From assembly GCA_038893995.1 (NCBI GenBank), contig JAWAQK010000014.1, forward strand, positions 33,122-47,723: a DNA stretch of 14,602 nucleotides. Direction: 5' to 3'. Position numbers and translations under genes: made by a program. Positions 3,660-9,596 of the stretch are shown here, piece by piece. Each line of letters opens with the position of its first letter. The first letter of the stretch is position 1. The notes beneath the pieces are model-generated. The model made no database searches. It was not told where the DNA came from and saw only the letters and a program-made list of their open reading frames with translations. This stretch comes from Candidatus Thorarchaeota archaeon (GTDB taxonomy: Archaea > Asgardarchaeota > Thorarchaeia > Thorarchaeales > Thorarchaeaceae).

Positions 3660-5633
3660 CTAGATTTGGAGTATCCACCTAACTATGTTCATTGCAAGCG
3701 TCCTGTCGTACAGCGAAGAATACTGACCCCGCATCCCCCAGTTGTCGATGAAGAAATTGGTTCCTGAGACAACAATCCTTCCTCCACCGGCGTTCTCCAG
3801 ACATCCAAGGACTGACTTGGTATTGTGGGTGGCCAGGACTGTTCCACCAACTGGAACATTGATACTTGCTCCCAAGTAGTCAAACGAACTGACGCCAACT
3901 GTGACTGGATGCGGCATCAGTGTGGTCACGAGAACAGGGTCATCCTGAGCCGTGGCGATTGTATCGTAGTTCAGCGAGAACCCTGACCACTGTAGGAACT
4001 CATTGAGTGAATCTACGTCGAGGGAACGGTTGGATAGCGCGGCCACAAAGATTCCTCCTCCGTTCAAGAAGTAGTCACGGTACGCATCACGCTCTGACTC
4101 ACTGAACCTGATCGATACCTCGTATGGGTTGAATGGGTCTGTATCGTTCAGGTTCCAGACGCATGGGTCGAGTATTATCACTGCATCGAACTCGCTCAGT
4201 ACCGGAAGGGTAATGACAGACATATCCGTCAACTCAGTCACAGAGATTCCCATCGTGACAAGCTCGATGTAGAGTTCCTTGAACTGGCCGTAGGTTGAAT
4301 CAATATCCCATGATGTGTGTGCGAGATCAAACGCAACCCGGGCGATCGGGTCTACGACCTCCTGGTCAATTACAACCCTCAAGTCGTCGAGTCCATCAGC
4401 AGAGAGGGTGATGTTTGCCTTGTACCTCGTAGTTGGGCCCGTTGTCAGGTCCAGTGTGACTGGCAACAGTATAGTCTGGTTGACCTGGAACTGAGTGGGA
4501 ATAGTGACGAATCCCTCGGGATCTGCCGAAACACTTGTACTGAAGTTTAGGATGCCCGATGTGATGACGTTTAGGTTGAACGAGTAGATGTCCCCTCGAA
4601 AGAGTCTCTCAAAGTCAAGCGGCAGAGCCGCAGGAGCGACATATGCCAGTGCTGATCTTGAGCCCCCTGATACGATGCTCTCGACCAGATTCCTTGAATT
4701 CTGGAGATCCAGTTTCCCGGCGCCCACTTGGTATTCTGGGTATCCTGCGATGGGGCTGGCCCCCTTCATCAGTGCTGCCATCACTAGACCCGGTGTCCAA
4801 GTGGCACCTCTAGACCTTAGAAAGGTCACTAGTTCGGCCGCTGCAGCCGCGACCCTCGGTGCTGCAAAGCTGGTCCCCTCATACATATTCGAGCCAAAGC
4901 TGGTATACCCCTCGGCCATGATGTCCGGCTTCATGTAACGCCACCTGGTCGGGCCCAAGCTCGAGTATTGGGCGGGCCTCCCCAGATAGTCAAGAGCTCC
5001 TACCGATATCGCGTACTGCGAGATCGAGGGCGAGCTTATGCTCGAACCTGCTATACCCCCATCGCCAGCGTTACCAGCCGAGGCTACCACCACAACACCC
5101 CTTCTGAATGCCCTCTCGACTGCCCTGACTGATGAGTCACCTATCGCGGTAGGTCCACCAAGGCTGAGATTGATGACACTGCAACCTTGGTCGACTGCCC
5201 AGTCTACGGCCGCGGCGATGGCTGGTGGACTCGCCAACCCCTCTGCGCTTATGACCTTGGCATTCACTATGACGGCACTCGGACTATTCGACGCAATAAG
5301 GTTGGCCACAAGCGTACCGTGAGGAACCCCCTGAGGAGACGAGTCCGATGTAGACGGATCGTCGTAGCTGTATCCGTACTGCTTGAGAACGAAGCTCCTC
5401 TGTTCGGCCACACGTGCTCCCAAGGTGGCCGTGCTTACACCTGTGTCTATGACTGCAACCTTTGTGATCACTGGTACAACATTGATCATTGGGACCAACA
5501 GTATTCCGACCATGCCCGACAGCAAGATCACAGTCAGGCATATTGCAGCGACCTTTCGTCCCTCAGAAGAGTGTCTTGGCGGCTCGTTACCCCAATAATA
5601 GGGTTCCACGATAGCATGTATGTGCGGCGACAT
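3660..5633 (-). CDS. Membrane-anchored subtilisin-family (S8) serine peptidase with an Ig-like region and a C-terminal GIFT/DUF4350-like domain
   Basis: Catalytic motifs VAVIDTG, HGTLVA, ASAGN and GTSFAAP, plus an N-terminal hydrophobic helix (VAAICLTVILLSGMVGILLVPMI). The C-terminal alpha/beta domain reads VAFDLAH...NGGGIFV...HPVTVGV...GGRIVVSG. The ORF-track start at 5783 is probably too far upstream; ATG 5633 or GTG 5609 is likelier. Confidence 0.9.
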   Translation of the reverse strand: MSPHIHAIVEPYYWGNEPPRHSSEGRKVAAICLTVILLSGMVGILLVPMINVVPVITKVAVIDTGVSTATLGARVAEQRSFVLKQYGYSYDDPSTSDSSPQGVPHGTLVANLIASNSPSAVIVNAKVISAEGLASPPAIAAAVDWAVDQGCSVINLSLGGPTAIGDSSVRAVERAFRRGVVVVASAGNAGDGGIAGSSISSPSISQYAISVGALDYLGRPAQYSSLGPTRWRYMKPDIMAEGYTSFGSNMYEGTSFAAPRVAAAAAELVTFLRSRGATWTPGLVMAALMKGASPIAGYPEYQVGAGKLDLQNSRNLVESIVSGGSRSALAYVAPAALPLDFERLFRGDIYSFNLNVITSGILNFSTSVSADPEGFVTIPTQFQVNQTILLPVTLDLTTGPTTRYKANITLSADGLDDLRVVIDQEVVDPIARVAFDLAHTSWDIDSTYGQFKELYIELVTMGISVTELTDMSVITLPVLSEFDAVIILDPCVWNLNDTDPFNPYEVSIRFSESERDAYRDYFLNGGGIFVAALSNRSLDVDSLNEFLQWSGFSLNYDTIATAQDDPVLVTTLMPHPVTVGVSSFDYLGASINVPVGGTVLATHNTKSVLGCLENAGGGRIVVSGTNFFIDNWGMRGQYSSLYDRTLAMNIVRWILQI

Positions 5634-5755
5634 CGCAGCTATTCGGGAACAATTACACAAGAACATTCCTGTCCAGTTGGTAGAGTGGGTGATGTCGCGA
5701 AGCATCCCGACAACATTCAATAGCATACTGAACGACTTGGCTTGATGACAGGTTT

Positions 5756-5763
5756 GCTTATCT
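5756..5763 (+). promoter_or_regulatory. Putative TATA box of the ATPase gene
   Basis: GCTTATCT about 40 nt before TTG 5804, followed by a GAGGT RBS-like motif just upstream of the start. Confidence 0.3.
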
Positions 5764-5803
5764 GTGGCAACTGTTTCCCCCATAGACCGCCGAGGTAAGA
5801 GAC

Positions 5804-8689
5804 TTGCGTGAAGAATCCGATATTACTTCCAGGAGCTCTGACGTTCAGTATCATGCGATGACTCTAGACGAGGTTGCCAGGATCCTTTCTACAGACCCTG
5901 CAGTGGGTCTGTCCGGAGACGAGGCTCGTCGTCGTTACCTCATCCACGGTCCAAACGCAATTCCAAAGGCCAGGGGAAACTTCTGGCAGGTATACTTGGC
6001 TCCGATCTTTAACTGGCTGATCAACATATACCTGATAAGCTCATTCGCGCTCCTGATGATAGCCCTCCTGTTTCCGACTCCTGAGAACGACATCAGCCAG
6101 GCGATGCTGTGGCTCTCTGTTGTGGCAGTCAACTGCGTGGTCGCGATATTCCAACAGTTCAGGGCTCAGAAAAAGCTTGAGGCACTTGAAAGGCTGTCAG
6201 CCGGCGAGTCGAGGGTGATCAGATCCGGCCAGGAGGAGCGAGTCAGTCCGGTCGACATCGTACCCGGTGATATTGTACGGATCGAGCAGGGTGACCGGGT
6301 ACCAGCAGACGGTCGCCTCATCACATCGTCTAATCTTACGATCAATGAGGCATCATTGACAGGTGAGAGCATCCCTGTTGTCAAGGATCATACTGTCATA
6401 GCGGATCCGGACGCACCGCTGACGGACATGGTCAACTCGGTCTTTCTGGGTACGTATGTTGCCACAGGAACGGGAAGGTTCCTGGTCACCAGGACCGGAC
6501 CCAGGACTGAGATTGGAAGGATTCAGGGCGCACTGGCTGCGCTCAACACTGGCGACATTCCGCTGAGGAAGAAGGTCAATCAGCTTGCAAAGTACCTCGG
6601 ACTAATTGCAATTGTGTTGATGTTCCTGTCTGTGTTGTGGACACTGGTGGTAGTTCCACTCATCGTGTCCCAGACAATCATTCTGGACCCGCTGGCAATA
6701 TCGATTCAGCTCAGCGCCGGAATAAGTAACGCAATGACGATAATGCCAATCAATATCCCTCTCCTGACCACAATTGTACTTCTAACAGGCGTACTTGCAA
6801 TGGCCAAGAAGAAAGTCATAGTCAGGGACCTATCAGCTGTCGAGAGCCTCGGTCGTGTGAGTGTGATCTGCAGCGACAAGACAGGAACCATGACGCGGAA
6901 CGAGATGCAGGTCCGCCTGATATGGGACACTGTGAACCTCTACCACGTAGAGGGGGAGGGTTATTCGCCTGAGGGCGTCTTCAGCGTAGTGAATGAGGAT
7001 ACCGGCATGGGGACTCCATCTCAGGACCAGCTGAAGCCCATCAGGGTGTCTGACTACCCGGTCCTCACCCGGCTCCTCATCTGCGGCGCCATCAACAACG
7101 ACTCGGAGATCGACAGTACCCCAGAGGGTTCGAGCTGGCGACCGATGGGTGACCCAACAGACGCAGCCATATTGACGGCATTTCGCAGAGCCCAATTCGA
7201 CGAGAAACTGATTCGGGACCGCTTTCAGGTAATAGCTGACTTTCCATTCGATTCCTCACTCAAGCGCATGTCAAAGGTCTGTAGGGAAGATGGGAAGTAT
7301 GTCTCCTTTGTGAAGGGTGCCACAGAAGTGCTCCTCGGGAGATGCAGCCGTATCACCAGTGAGCGCGGACCGGTCCGGTTCACTGCGGACCTGCTGAGGC
7401 GGGTTTCCGAGCTCACAATGTCGTATTCTGAGAAGGGATACCGGGTGATATCGTTTGCATATCGTGACATGACTCCCAGCTCTGAAACATCTATTACGAG
7501 AGACGAGGCAGAGTCTGACCTGACCTACATGGGGTTCGTGTGCATAGTCGATCCGCCTCGAGAAGGTGTCCGTGATGCTGTAAGTGCGTGTCACAGCGCC
7601 GGAATTCAGGTCGTGATGATAACGGGCGACTCTGCTGGAACGGCGAAGACGATCGCGACCGACCTTGGTATCCTCTCGGACAACTCTCTGGTCGTAGAGG
7701 GTCGTGACATCGAGGACCTGACACCGGATGAGTTTGCAAGGGTCAATGTGTTTGCTCGCGTCAACCCTGAACACAAGCAGCTGATAGTCGAGAGGTACCA
7801 GGAGCAGGACAGAGTAGTCGCAATGACCGGTGACGGAGTGAACGATGCGCTTGCACTTGCGATGAGTGATACAGGCATTGCAATGGGTATCTCTGGGACA
7901 GATGTCGCCAAGGAAGCGGCCGATATTGTAATAGCTGACGACAGCTTCACCTCTATCGTAGAGGGTGTTCGTCACGGTCGTGGGCTCTTCTCAAAGATCC
8001 GCGCAATGGTCTACTTCTACGTGGCCATAAACGTCGCTGAAGCGATCGTGTTCTTCAGTGCTCTCCTGTTCATGCCAGTTGTGGACCTCTTCTACAACAA
8101 CTGGCAGAATCTCTATCTTGTTGTCACCACACACACGTTTCCTGGCCTAGCCCTAGTCTTCGACAAGGTGTCCCCACGTGTCATGCAAGAGAGACCACGA
8201 AACAGCGAGGAGATACTGACCCGGCCTTTGGTGAAGTTCATGGGGCTCAATATCCTACTGATGTCGTCTTGTATCGGTTTCGTATACTGGCTGACTGTGA
8301 CAGGAGTCTTTGGACCGGCGGAGGGCGAACTCCTCAGCACGGGCCGGTACTATGTACCCAAAGCCACTATCATGATGCTCACTGTCATCCTGATCGTGGA
8401 GAGCTCCCTGGTATTTGTGATAAGGAGGATCAATCTGCCCGTCACAACCGCTGTCCGAGAACCAGGCGTATTTCGATACATATTCCTCCTGTCCCTGATA
8501 TACTTGGCGCACCTGTTACTGATGTACGTGCCCGTTGTTCAGGACATCCTTCAGGCGCGTGGCCTTGTCTTCCGTTTCGTCCCGCTGACTGATATTGACT
8601 GGGTATTCTGTATAACTGTGGGATCTATTCCTCTGATCGGAATGGAACTCTACAAGAGGAGTCTCCGTCGAAGGGGCGTGACTCTGTGA
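5804..8689 (+). CDS. P-type ATPase, P2-like architecture, substrate unknown
   Basis: Motifs TGES (A domain), DKTGT (phosphorylation site, 6875), KGATE, DPPR, TGD and GDGVND, with about 10 TM helices. The transport-site residues are atypical (see findings). Confidence 0.95.
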   Translation: MREESDITSRSSDVQYHAMTLDEVARILSTDPAVGLSGDEARRRYLIHGPNAIPKARGNFWQVYLAPIFNWLINIYLISSFALLMIALLFPTPENDISQAMLWLSVVAVNCVVAIFQQFRAQKKLEALERLSAGESRVIRSGQEERVSPVDIVPGDIVRIEQGDRVPADGRLITSSNLTINEASLTGESIPVVKDHTVIADPDAPLTDMVNSVFLGTYVATGTGRFLVTRTGPRTEIGRIQGALAALNTGDIPLRKKVNQLAKYLGLIAIVLMFLSVLWTLVVVPLIVSQTIILDPLAISIQLSAGISNAMTIMPINIPLLTTIVLLTGVLAMAKKKVIVRDLSAVESLGRVSVICSDKTGTMTRNEMQVRLIWDTVNLYHVEGEGYSPEGVFSVVNEDTGMGTPSQDQLKPIRVSDYPVLTRLLICGAINNDSEIDSTPEGSSWRPMGDPTDAAILTAFRRAQFDEKLIRDRFQVIADFPFDSSLKRMSKVCREDGKYVSFVKGATEVLLGRCSRITSERGPVRFTADLLRRVSELTMSYSEKGYRVISFAYRDMTPSSETSITRDEAESDLTYMGFVCIVDPPREGVRDAVSACHSAGIQVVMITGDSAGTAKTIATDLGILSDNSLVVEGRDIEDLTPDEFARVNVFARVNPEHKQLIVERYQEQDRVVAMTGDGVNDALALAMSDTGIAMGISGTDVAKEAADIVIADDSFTSIVEGVRHGRGLFSKIRAMVYFYVAINVAEAIVFFSALLFMPVVDLFYNNWQNLYLVVTTHTFPGLALVFDKVSPRVMQERPRNSEEILTRPLVKFMGLNILLMSSCIGFVYWLTVTGVFGPAEGELLSTGRYYVPKATIMMLTVILIVESSLVFVIRRINLPVTTAVREPGVFRYIFLLSLIYLAHLLLMYVPVVQDILQARGLVFRFVPLTDIDWVFCITVGSIPLIGMELYKRSLRRRGVTL

Positions 8690-8780
8690 TTCACTAGTGG
8701 AAACATCTCGTGTCTTCACCGAGTCCGCCCTAGAGCTATCTTAATTGGCAGGATGTGTCCCCTGCAATTGGGTTTCGCTG

Positions 8781-9596
8781 TTGGGAAAAGTCACAACTCA
8801 CAAGATTCGAATGATGAAGCAGGACGGCCGGAAAATCGTCATGTTGACTGCCTATGACACTCCGACCGCAAGGATCCTGAGTAAGTGCGGAGTGGACATC
8901 ATTCTCGTCGGCGACTCGGTGGGAAACGTATTGCTTGGATACGACAGTACGATCCCAGTGACGCTTGACGACGTGATCTACCACTGCGCGGCAGTGGCCC
9001 GTGCCAGACCCAATAGCCTAATCGTTGGTGACATGCCCTTCATGTCCTGTAAGATCAGCAGGGAGCAGGCCCTTCGGAACTGTACGAGGATGATTCAAGA
9101 GGGCGGTGCTGAGGCAGTGAAGATAGAGGGTGGGTCACTGGTAGTACCGATAGTACGCGATGTTGTTGACGCAGGAATCCCAGTGATGGGGCACATTGGA
9201 TTCACACCCCAGTCGATCCACGAGTTTGGCGGTCACAGGGTCCAGGGACGGACCCGTGAGGCGGCAGAGTCTCTCGTACTACAGGCAAAGGCACTTGAGG
9301 ATGCAGGTGTGTTCTCCATAGTCATCGAACTAGTGCCGCACGAGACTGCCAGGAGGATAACTGAATCGGTCAGTGTTCCTACGATTGGAATAGGTGCAGG
9401 GCCCTACTGCGATGGTCAGGTGCTGGTACTGTGGGACATGTTGGGCCTAGAGGAGTTCAGACCACGATTCCTGAAGAGATACGCCGAGATTGGAAAGACG
9501 ATCGCAGACGCAGTCACCAGATTCTCGGATGAGGTGAGGTCTGGTGTCTTCCCAGATCTTGACCACAGCTTCGAGATGGATGTTGATCAGTCCTGA
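8781..9596 (+). CDS. panB: 3-methyl-2-oxobutanoate hydroxymethyltransferase
   Basis: Motifs MLTAYD, ILVGDS, DMPFMS, AVKIEGG, VMGHIGFTPQS and IGIGAG..CDGQVLV..DMLG. Start placed at TTG 8781 (MGKVTT...), because a TATA-like CTTAATT at 8740-8746 overlaps the ORF-track start at 8745. Confidence 0.96.
   Translation: MGKVTTHKIRMMKQDGRKIVMLTAYDTPTARILSKCGVDIILVGDSVGNVLLGYDSTIPVTLDDVIYHCAAVARARPNSLIVGDMPFMSCKISREQALRNCTRMIQEGGAEAVKIEGGSLVVPIVRDVVDAGIPVMGHIGFTPQSIHEFGGHRVQGRTREAAESLVLQAKALEDAGVFSIVIELVPHETARRITESVSVPTIGIGAGPYCDGQVLVLWDMLGLEEFRPRFLKRYAEIGKTIADAVTRFSDEVRSGVFPDLDHSFEMDVDQS

Follow-up and report, generated by a model that had tools for sequence, protein, structure and literature searches.

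A deep, mostly Asgard-archaeal clade of P2-like P-type ATPases with a remodelled transport site

The P-type ATPase encoded in the stretch of DNA analysed here (the window, 14,602 nucleotides of a Candidatus Thorarchaeota contig) belongs, by sequence comparison, to a deep, monophyletic and mostly Asgard-archaeal clade that is undescribed as a family. Its scaffold is P2-like in profile scores and fold, with no special affinity to P4 or P5, and the changes in TM4 and TM6 are, judged from the alignments, conserved far beyond chance. Our best guess at the substrate is a cation other than Ca2+, either a His-liganded divalent metal or H+. The reading that we tentatively favour, at a probability of about 40%, is a non-Ca2+ single-site pump for a divalent transition metal (Mn/Fe/Co/Ni/Zn) with H+ counter-transport. 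The features of the window that bear on this reading are the following.

3660-5783, minus strand: S8 subtilase, divergently transcribed
5804-8689, plus strand: complete P-type ATPase gene, a single open frame
5981-6040, plus strand: TM1 (F60-S79) with the clade-specific residues Y64, P67 and N70, from the alignment to SERCA1a
6152-6169, plus strand: cytoplasmic end of TM2, QQFRAQ, with Q118 at the position of SERCA E109
6359-6370, plus strand: A-domain dephosphorylation motif TGES, intact, G187 and E188 invariant across all alignments
6731-6766, plus strand: TM4 segment AMTIMPINIPLL, containing PINIP
6746-6760, plus strand: P315-I316-N317-I318-P319, the unwound part of TM4 (SERCA P308-E309-G310-L311-P312)
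6875-6889, plus strand: phosphorylation motif DKTGT (D358), a sequence motif
7829-7846, plus strand: P-domain hinge motif GDGVND, followed by the clade-specific Leu683
8027-8041, plus strand: TM5 INVAE with N743 and E746, the retained site I ligands (SERCA N768/E771)
8120-8122, plus strand: V773 of TM6, replacing SERCA N796
8126-8143, plus strand: TM6 TTHTFP, with H777 (8132-8134) at the position of SERCA D800
8387-8404, plus strand: TM8 ILIVES with E866 (8399-8401), a position equated with SERCA E908 by the initial annotation
8745-9596, plus strand: ketopantoate hydroxymethyltransferase (PanB)

The protein has 961 aa when read from the TTG at 5804 and 943 aa when read from the ATG at 5858, where the database record begins (M19). 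TTG is probably the start codon, since the N-termini of homologs align with the extra N-terminal stretch. The Pfam domains Cation_ATPase_N, E1-E2_ATPase, Cation_ATPase, Hydrolase and Cation_ATPase_C were found, along with the superfamily motifs (DKTGT, a TGES-type A domain and TGD / GDGxND in the P domain), and the superfamily model TIGR01494 (HAD-IC) scores 267.5 bits against a cut-off of 62.3. At all clade loci read, DKTGT lies exactly 43 residues C-terminal of PINIP. We predict a catalytically competent ATPase on a 10-helix P2 scaffold of the SERCA/SPCA/LMCA1 type; the intact TGES, DKTGT and GDGVND motifs had been recorded before, and their coordinates were confirmed.

The residues of the transport site were equated by HMMER alignment to SERCA1a and LMCA1, which pairs I316 with E309, N317 with G310, N743 with N768, E746 with E771, V773 with N796, T776 with T799 and H777 with D800 of SERCA1a. 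The SERCA-type site II ligands E309, N796 and D800, the last of which bridges both Ca2+ sites in SERCA, are lost and replaced by I316, V773 and H777, and the same holds clade-wide. Kept are the site I ligands N743 and E746, and E866 in TM8, a column where Glu is also found in the canonical paralog of this genome. The entry path has changed as well: in TM1, Q/K, A, F/L and N take the place of the SERCA acids E51/E55/E58/D59, P67 stands where 92% of PEGL pumps conserve Gln, and Q118 in TM2 replaces a Glu present in 98% of them. Position 777 is His in 33 of 34 clade representatives and Asp in 93% of PEGL pumps, and the position of Leu683 is Pro in 96% of PEGL pumps. The positions that distinguish the clade from PEGL pumps lie mainly in TM1, TM2, TM4 and TM6 and include the entry path and site II. 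The initial annotation had described an Ile at the E309 position, N796 to V and D800 to H, the retained TM5 pair and TM8 Glu, QQFRAQ in TM2 and an abolished Ca2+ site II, all of which the alignment bears out. It had also listed T799 as kept, which is right for this protein and its close orthologs but not for the clade as a whole, where a hydroxyl occurs at this position in 15 of 34 representatives.

Residue counts and trees were based on the same 34 representatives (33-65% identity), which are monophyletic with a support of 100 in both FastTree and IQ-TREE and nest among PEGL-type P2-like pumps. P315, a hydrophobic residue at 316 and E746 are present in all 34, E866 in 32, N317 in 31 and N743 in 30; in some members the second Pro is missing (PINIV, PVNLV) or Ser replaces Asn (PVSIP, PWSFP). 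We define the proposed clade by P-hydrophobic-N-hydrophobic-P/V in TM4, His in TM6, N..E in TM5, Glu in TM8 and monophyly relative to PEGL pumps, and the present ATPase has the whole set. The TM4 block and T775/T776/H777 do not vary among 46 orthologs at 57-64% identity. Of the 150 best representatives of clusters at 50% identity, about 45 carry the P-hydrophobic-N-hydrophobic-P motif together with the TM6 His, down to 33% identity. PINIP and TTH, for which a homolog check had been proposed, are thus not private to this sequence. A clade HMM scores 1325 bits on this ATPase and 856 on the best paralog.

The DNA pattern for PINIPLLTT was found in at least 147 of 400 genomes of the same phylum and in at least 66 of 85 genomes of its own family, with 0 control hits. 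Seven bacterial matches in the genome-collection scan were taken as chance matches because no DKTGT followed downstream. The clade is represented in Thor-, Loki-, Hel-, Heimdall-, Hod-, Hermod- and Odinarchaeota and Atabeyarchaeia, with further members in some Kor-, Bathy- and Nitrososphaeria archaea. The near-universal presence in some families looks more like housekeeping than metal resistance, a point against a metal pump. The gene is also present in the cultured Lokiarchaeum ossiferum and is therefore amenable to experiment. Databases label clade members as 'Ca2+-transporting ATPase' or 'cation-transporting'. In the literature searched we found no description of the clade, an older 'FUPA' label for a Korarchaeota member being possible, and the motif strings PINIP and PINLP returned unrelated words only.

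Every NCBIfam equivalog cut-off was missed by a wide margin. The best-scoring of these models is TIGR01522 (PMR1/SPCA-type Ca2+/Mn2+; 472.9 bits, cut-off 798.3), with TIGR01523 (P2D ENA-type Na+/K+ efflux; 425.6 bits, cut-off 645.05, matched in one stretch over residues 15-824) as the second best; lower scores were obtained with TIGR01116 (P2A SERCA-type; 422.9 bits, cut-off 703.4), a model that gives 629 and 610 bits for the canonical paralogs of this genome, and with TIGR01524 (P3B Mg2+-ATPase MgtA; 314.6 bits, cut-off 610.75). PMR1/SPCA-type pumps have a single site II built on the PEGL Glu and the TM6 Asn/Asp, and in the HMMER alignment these residues are replaced in this ATPase. Domain order, the 10-TM scaffold, the TM5 N..E and the TM8 Glu are shared with P2A pumps (SERCA1a, SPCA1/PMR1, Listeria LMCA1), whereas PINIP in place of PEGLP, the two TM6 replacements and the missing TM1/TM2 entry-path acids are not. 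With the clade conserved and no equivalog cut-off reached, the initial view of an uncharacterised P-ATPase subfamily is strengthened, and so is the suspected mis-annotation as a Ca2+ pump, given the labels of the members and the erased site II.

The AF2 model used was built from a 79-row alignment (pLDDT 88.3, pTM 0.83); a model from the 46 close orthologs was poor (pLDDT 69, pTM 0.47) and was left unused. The 79-row model has a helix break at 314-316, corresponding to the usual TM4 unwinding, and TM1 kinks at residues 65 and 70. The 50 best Foldseek matches in the PDB are all P2 pumps (TMq up to 0.78), the nearest folds being SERCA, SPCA1, LMCA1, PfATP4 and Na,K-ATPase, and the best PDB sequence matches are LMCA1 (1e-114) and SERCA (1e-107). 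In a whole-PDB fold ranking PfATP4 comes out on top (9n10, Z 33.5, rmsd 3.9 over 735 residues) and the proton pump AHA2 is among the best (5ksd, Z 30.0); P4 and P5 structures rank below P2 and P3, with Z 25-28 for P4.

Alongside this ATPase the genome encodes a canonical pump with IPEGLP/..TD.., one with VPEALA/..TD.. and a separate MgtA-like pump (contig C3), so that Ca2+ and Mg2+ roles are already covered. The genome also has two CPC-type P1B metal pumps, which speaks against a further metal pump. The S8 subtilase lies upstream on the opposite strand in all 23 loci that carry it and PanB downstream on the same strand in 20 loci; the S8 subtilase/MFS/PanB synteny was seen in Thor-type loci only, and we consider the subtilase to be probable genomic context and PanB probable lineage synteny rather than a functional link. 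A single-TM protein of about 650 aa, absent from this genome, is encoded just downstream of the pump in 10 loci. A YhhN-family membrane protein lies 95-135 nt upstream on the same strand in five Heimdall/Hod loci, a CDP-alcohol phosphatidyltransferase takes this place in one, and a gene with a SUOX-fold Mo domain is found near the pump in seven loci; each of the neighbours YhhN, SUOX-fold Mo domain, Lon and M29 occurs in sub-branches only. A MocA-like gene was rejected as partner, being part of an adjacent Cox/Xdh-like cluster. The Korarchaeota loci and the locus of a distant member have no neighbours in common with other clade loci, and no partner gene is conserved across the clade in the loci compared over lineages. 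No metal-responsive regulator, metallochaperone or metal-binding domain was found near or fused to the pump in any lineage examined, again a point against a metal pump.

A possible mechanism for transition-metal transport can be outlined from the residues that remain. Removal of site II (E309 and N796 to hydrophobic residues, D800 to His) and neutralisation of the cytoplasmic entry funnel (E51, E55, E58, D59 and E109 to Q/K, A, F/L, N and Q) would leave a single pocket where SERCA has site I, with N317 (TM4), N743 and E746 (TM5), H777 (TM6) and E866 (TM8) as its lining. We infer that these five conserved polar residues form the binding site, with a geometry modelled by homology to SERCA alone. 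A normal Post-Albers cycle would run through phosphorylation of D358 and TGES-dependent dephosphorylation and may move one small non-Ca2+ cation per turn; the metal would be bound by the His, two Glu and two Asn, and H+ would be counter-transported on the carboxylates. Since site II is erased and the other site holds a His, the cargo is very probably one other than Ca2+. A near-invariant His among Glu and Asn ligands is typical of transition-metal sites (ZIP, CDF, the HEGxT of P1B-4), and to our knowledge such a His has no counterpart in the Ca2+, Na+, K+ or Mg2+ sites described for P-type pumps. Two observations weigh against a metal: the entry funnel is neutral or slightly basic, which is unexpected if it is to attract a divalent cation, and a His/Glu pair could carry protons equally well.

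A proton pump, or an H+-coupled pump for monovalent cations, in which H777 together with E746/E866 would be a protonatable centre shifting its pKa between E1 and E2, appears unlikely, although several traits of P3A pumps (AHA2, Pma1) recur here. In the plant P3A H+-ATPases such a centre consists of D684/N106/R655, and we take AHA2 D684 to stand at the position of SERCA D800, that is, of H777. The hydrophobic residue at the E309 position of a P-x-x-x-P TM4, present in all 34 representatives, would play the part that it has in P3A (PIAMP/PVGLP), there is no longer an acidic cation funnel, the fold match to AHA2 is good, a housekeeping-like distribution suits a bioenergetic role and cation-specific partner genes were not found. 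P3A membership nevertheless fails because the essential, P3A-defining TM6 Asp is absent, being His here; moreover, TIGR01647 (P3A H+-ATPase) gives 325.2 bits against a cut-off of 615.5, below the P2 models, no TM5 Arg or Lys is conserved as built-in counter-ion among the 34 representatives, and the clade nests among PEGL pumps. We are equally doubtful of a hard-cation pump (Ca2+, Mg2+ or Na+/K+) working through a remodelled site I alone, possibly in reversed direction. The equivalents of N768, E771 and E908 are kept, the best HMMs are PMR1-, ENA- and SERCA-type and the top fold match is the Na+ pump PfATP4; the likeness to P2D/ENA-type pumps, PfATP4 included, was judged by score and fold, and the TIGR01523 score stays below its cut-off of 645. 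Such a pump would have to do without E309, N796 and the bridging D800 throughout the clade and would use a His, no usual ligand for Ca2+, Mg2+, Na+ or K+, in a genome where canonical Ca2+-type and MgtA-type pumps coexist. A precedent is given by the P6 pump CtpE of Mycobacterium, which lacks the TM6 Asp and yet imports Ca2+ (Palmgren, 2023; PMC10654040). CtpE likewise represents a prokaryotic P2-like branch recognised by a replaced TM6 Asp and sets a precedent for a new family name, but it is bacterial and has PEGL with a TM6 Ile, whereas the archaeal clade lacks PEGL and has a TM6 His, which sets it apart from P6 as described (PMC10654040).

It is improbable that the pump has abandoned metal cations and uses a neutralised route along TM1/2/4/6 of the P2 scaffold for a lipid head group, an oxyanion, or an organic cation such as a polyamine, with P-I-N-I as a hydrophobic gate like the P4 P-I-S-L and with His and Glu neutralising each other. 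The TM4 pattern P-I-[S/N]-[L/I], whose gate residue is Ile, resembles that of P4 pumps (ATP8A1, Drs2, Neo1), although P3A pumps have a hydrophobic residue there too, and acidic ion ligands in TM4 and TM6 are missing here as in P4 pumps; the variants PINIV, PVNLV, PVSIP and PWSFP, the neutral funnel, and the YhhN, CDP-alcohol phosphatidyltransferase and SUOX-fold neighbours point the same way. P4 membership fails, however, because the A domain has TGES and not DGET; furthermore, the TM5 N..E and TM8 Glu are kept, a search for a Cdc50-like partner found none, the lipid and Mo genes neighbour the pump in single lineages only, and the MocA-like gene is part of the Cox/Xdh-like cluster. P5 pumps have the TM4 motif PP(E/A)LP, unlike PINIP. 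Affinity to P4 and P5 was judged by HMM scores with a paralog control and by the fold ranking, in which both fall below P2/P3: TIGR01652 (P4 lipid flippase) gives 113.7 bits (cut-off 431.25; 105 and 89 for the PEGL paralogs of the same genome) and TIGR01657 (P5) 225.6 bits (cut-off 618.25; paralogs 250 and 236), no better than ordinary P2A paralogs. The initial annotation was thus right that neither P3A nor P4 fits, but the bearing on P4/P5 origin that it proposed finds no support in these scores, in the P2-only Foldseek matches or in the position of the clade among PEGL pumps. Were a large cargo true, the pump, sitting in the closest archaeal relatives of eukaryotes, would be a prokaryotic analogue of the eukaryotic 'giant-substrate' P4/P5 pumps, though descent of these from it could not be demonstrated. 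It is very improbable that the pump is degenerate, hydrolysing ATP without vectorial transport, for example as sensor or scaffold: nothing specific favours this, lost canonical ligands could mean lost transport, but the remodelled TM residues are strongly and specifically conserved over deep divergence, a pattern that speaks for a defined binding site under selection.

The classes of P-type ATPases are told apart by the residues of the transport site. A specialist review of 2023 recognised P1-P5, added P6 and predicted more prokaryotic families (PMC10654040). The clade described here is a concrete candidate for a further family, being deep (down to 33% identity) and monophyletic, with a coherent rewrite of site and entry path. 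Its members are common among the archaea most closely related to eukaryotes, and annotation routinely mistakes them for Ca2+ pumps. Asgard archaea have been stated to universally encode Ca2+-ATPases, which was taken as support for Ca2+ signalling (PMC7997004); the labelling as Ca2+ pumps may have fed this statement, the clade membership of the proteins counted there being putative. Once identified, the substrate would extend a textbook superfamily by a new specificity and would correct transport reconstructions for Asgard genomes.

The longest frame in the window (5804-8689, forward strand) is stop-free over 961 residues and encodes a P-type ATPase with the full P2/P3-type Pfam architecture (Cation_ATPase_N, E1-E2_ATPase, Cation_ATPase, Hydrolase, Cation_ATPase_C). 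The public record starts at ATG 5858 (943 aa), but the 18 residues between TTG 5804 and this codon align with the N-termini of orthologs (consensus M-S-x-E-D-A-I-T ... Y-H), so the longer form is probably the real one; residues are numbered from TTG 5804. All motifs read in the initial annotation were re-located in the window at the positions it gave, on the forward strand:

6152-6169, forward, QQFRAQ (TM2)
6359-6370, forward, TGES
6746-6760, forward, PINIP (TM4)
6875-6889, forward, DKTGT
7829-7846, forward, GDGVND
8027-8041, forward, INVAE (TM5)
8126-8143, forward, TTHTFP (TM6), with His777 at 8132-8134
8387-8404, forward, ILIVES (TM8)

Its residue equivalences to SERCA in TM4, TM5 and TM6 also hold, since the HMMER alignment to SERCA1a and Listeria LMCA1 places PINIP on PEGLP, INVAE on SNVGE and LVVTTHTFP on VNLVTDGLP. 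The pairs (pump/SERCA) are I316/E309, N317/G310, N743/N768, E746/E771, V773/N796, T776/T799 and H777/D800.

A word-indexed search with the pump yielded over 120 proteins with identities of 57-64%, nearly all from Thorarchaeota or Promethearchaeota MAGs and labelled either "Ca2+-transporting ATPase" or "cation-transporting P-type ATPase". MPINIPLL is kept in all of them, and an alignment of 46 close orthologs shows no variation in the TM4 block, N743, E746, T775-T776-H777 and E866, so PINIP and TTH are not private to this sequence. An exhaustive HMMER scan covered 1.84 billion cluster representatives; among the best 150, about 45 (33-59% identity) carry P-[IVFWL]-[N, rarely S/M]-[ILF]-[P/V] in TM4 together with x-H-x-x-P in TM6, and the remaining pumps all have a PEGL-type TM4 and the TM6 Asp. 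In 34 full-length representatives of the clade, Q117, P315, a hydrophobic residue at 316 and E746 are present in 34/34, H777 in 33/34, E866 in 32/34, N317 in 31/34 and N743 in 30/34. The PINIP/His observation is therefore real and defines a clade; the Thr at the T799 position (T776), present here and in the close orthologs, is not conserved across these representatives. Compared with 102 PEGL pumps, the clade is set apart by Y64, P67 (SERCA Q56), Q118 (SERCA E109), N317, L320, L321, T328, V338, R351, L683, H777 and R875. With the loss of the SERCA entry-path acids E51, E55, E58 and D59 added, the rewrite extends beyond two residues and spans both site II and the acidic path by which ions enter from the cytoplasm.

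The 34 representatives are monophyletic with support of 100 both in FastTree (141 rows) and in IQ-TREE (LG+G4, SH-aLRT, 64 rows), nested among PEGL-type P2-like pumps; their weak grouping with the long-branched MgtA-like paralog (SH-aLRT 84) is unreliable. Named members belong to Thor-, Loki/Prometh-, Hel- and Odinarchaeota and to Korarchaeota. PINIPLLTT, searched as a degenerate DNA pattern, matched 147 of 400 genomes of the phylum and 66 of 85 of the window's own family, both lower bounds because variants such as PINLP escape the pattern; several other families are near saturation, some genomes hold two copies, and the reversed-pattern control gave 0 matches. With one genome per species (185,579 species), at least 119 stretches matched, and 72-73 of the 80 inspected prove to be P-type ATPases, in which DKTGT follows at exactly 43 residues and TM6 carries the His wherever the locus includes it. 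Their sources are Thor, Hermod, Heimdall, Hod, Odin, Promethearchaeota (among them the cultured Lokiarchaeum ossiferum B35), Atabeyarchaeia and LC30; further ones lie in two Nitrososphaeria MAGs, in one Bathyarchaeia MAG and on one "Aerophobetes"-binned contig. This contig (NJBP01000013.1, locus L025, "Candidatus Aerophobetes bacterium Ae_b3b") is the sole bacterial-labelled one with true members, explained either by mis-binning of archaeal DNA or by horizontal transfer; of its two copies, one has Val for the otherwise invariant TM5 Glu (INIVV). Seven other bacterial matches were rejected as chance matches. Tandem paralogs, for example PINLP beside PINIP, occur in Loki- and Heimdall-type loci:

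L026, 1093-3933, forward, adjoining the PINIP gene
L025, 6305-7999, reverse
L087, 4610-7492, forward

A confident model of the pump (pLDDT 88.3, pTM 0.83, 79-row alignment) has TM4 unwound at 314-316, as is usual. The best 50 Foldseek matches in the PDB comprise only P2 pumps (SERCA, SPCA1, LMCA1, Na,K- and H,K-ATPase; TM-score <=0.78). Against representative structures, Z was 33.5 for PfATP4, 31.3 for SPCA1, 30.6 for SERCA2, 30.3 for LMCA1, 30.0 for AHA2, 29.5 for MgtA, 29.0 for PMCA, 28.2 for H,K-ATPase, 25-28 for P4 flippases, 27.5 for P5B, 21.9 for P5A and about 21 for P1B, adjacent ranks being almost tied and dependent on conformational state. The fold is thus P2 and the catalytic motifs are intact, while site II and the acidic funnel are lost.

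The pump passed the NCBIfam superfamily model TIGR01494 (267 bits, cut-off 62) and missed every specific cut-off widely (score/cut-off: PMR1-type 473/798, ENA-type 426/645, SERCA-type 423/703, PMCA 399/507, Na,K/H,K 365/946, P3A 325/616, MgtA 315/611, P5 226/618, P1B 223/346, P4 114/431). It lacks what defines P2A (E309, N796, D800), P3A (the TM6 Asp), P4 (DGET) and P5 (PPxLP), and it differs from P6/CtpE, which keeps PEGL and has a TM6 Ile. The view that it is neither P3A nor P4 was thus borne out, and that of a new subfamily mis-annotated as a Ca2+ pump gained support from the conserved monophyletic clade, the missed cut-offs and the Ca2+-ATPase labels. The suggested bearing on the origin of P4 and P5 pumps found none: two canonical paralogs encoded in the same genome, used as controls, gave similar scores (P5 250 and 236; P4 105 and 89), so the clade is no closer to these two families than any P2A pump is.

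No neighbour is common to the whole clade across Thor, Heimdall/Hod, Odin, Atabey, LC30, Promethearchaeota and Loki-type loci, and no Cdc50-like or beta-subunit-like partner occurs in them. The pump's neighbours in the window are a divergent S8 subtilase, an MFS transporter and, on the downstream side, PanB, an order that recurs in Thor-type loci only; the divergent subtilase-pump pair (start codons about 20-75 nt apart) is kept in 23 of them. In Heimdall/Hod loci the pump is preceded, 95-135 nt upstream on the same strand, by a membrane protein of the YhhN family (TMEM86 lysoplasmalogenase family), whose slot is taken in one Hod locus by a CDP-alcohol phosphatidyltransferase-like gene; in this one lineage they may form a lipid-related operon with the pump. 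A SUOX-fold molybdopterin domain protein (about 190 aa; its best match in NCBIfam is MsrP, below cut-off) occurs at 56 nt to 2.7 kb from the pump, variously arranged, in seven loci of Odin, Atabeyarchaeia, LC30 and some Promethearchaeota. A protein of about 650 aa, with a single TM helix at its N-terminus and a weak match to Pfam E3_UFM1_ligase (24 bits), follows the pump with a 13-61 nt gap or overlapping in 10 Thor-type or "Promethearchaeota"-labelled loci; tblastn found no copy in the window's genome, where PanB directly follows. Lon and M29 peptidases are neighbours in one sub-branch. Upstream of the pump in the Hermod/Hod loci L016, L019 and L034, subunits of about 755, 155 and 275 aa stand with a MocA-like cytidylyltransferase, a cluster that would be Cox/Xdh-like judging from subunit sizes only.

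Neighbouring genes of the pump
Window, 3660-5783, reverse, S8 subtilase
L038, 5873-6583, reverse, YhhN-family
L074, 4044-4739, forward, YhhN-family (also L019, L034, L076)
L065, 3518-4234, reverse, CDP-alcohol phosphatidyltransferase-like
L027, 2814-3383, forward, SUOX-fold
L042, 4963-5532, reverse, SUOX-fold
L054, 2519-3112, forward, SUOX-fold
L060, 5186-5767, reverse, SUOX-fold (also L055, L077, L072)
L008, 10921-12921, about 650 aa
L011, 9941-11887, about 650 aa (also 8 more loci)

Five conserved polar residues remain in the membrane: N743, E746 and H777, which align with the SERCA ligands N768, E771 and D800; N317, which falls on the non-ligand G310; and E866, putatively equivalent to SERCA E908. 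Together they would make up one occluded site, in an enzyme that would follow a normal Post-Albers cycle. In our preferred reading, at a probability of roughly 0.4, the pump moves a cation other than Ca2+ and its near-invariant His marks a divalent transition-metal site; however, metal regulators and chaperones are missing near the pump, its distribution is housekeeping-like and its own genome already has two P1B pumps. That His and Glu instead carry protons, making it an H+ pump, is less likely but a serious rival, and equally so is a hard-cation pump on a remodelled site I, for which CtpE offers a parallel. A lipid, organic or anionic substrate would fit the P4-like PINI, the neutral entry funnel and the lineage-restricted lipid-gene neighbours, but these are the only hints, and we consider it improbable, more so than proton or hard-cation transport.

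The clade is absent from a 2023 review of the superfamily, which recognises P1-P5, puts CtpE forward as P6, draws attention to CtpH/I and considers further prokaryotic families likely (PMC10654040), and its motif was not found in the literature searched. Orthologs of a putative Ca2+-ATPase (TC 3.A.3.2.21) were reported in all five proteomes of an Asgard transportome study (PMC7997004). The window's assembly (2.33 Mb, 91% complete, window on contig C14) encodes seven P-type ATPases: besides the pump, the two P1B pumps of CPC type, a canonical IPEGLP/NLATDGFP pump, a VPEALA/NLVTDGLP pump, an MgtA-like pump (TPELLPM/NNLLYD) and a paralog on contig C29 (15652-18516, forward) with canonical IPEGLP and an odd TM6 (WVNLAATGLTD), apparently without Asp at the D800 position, which recalls P6/CtpE in keeping PEGL and losing the TM6 Asp. 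The coexistence of ordinary Ca2+ and Mg2+ pumps in the same genome argues that the clade pump has a role distinct from theirs.
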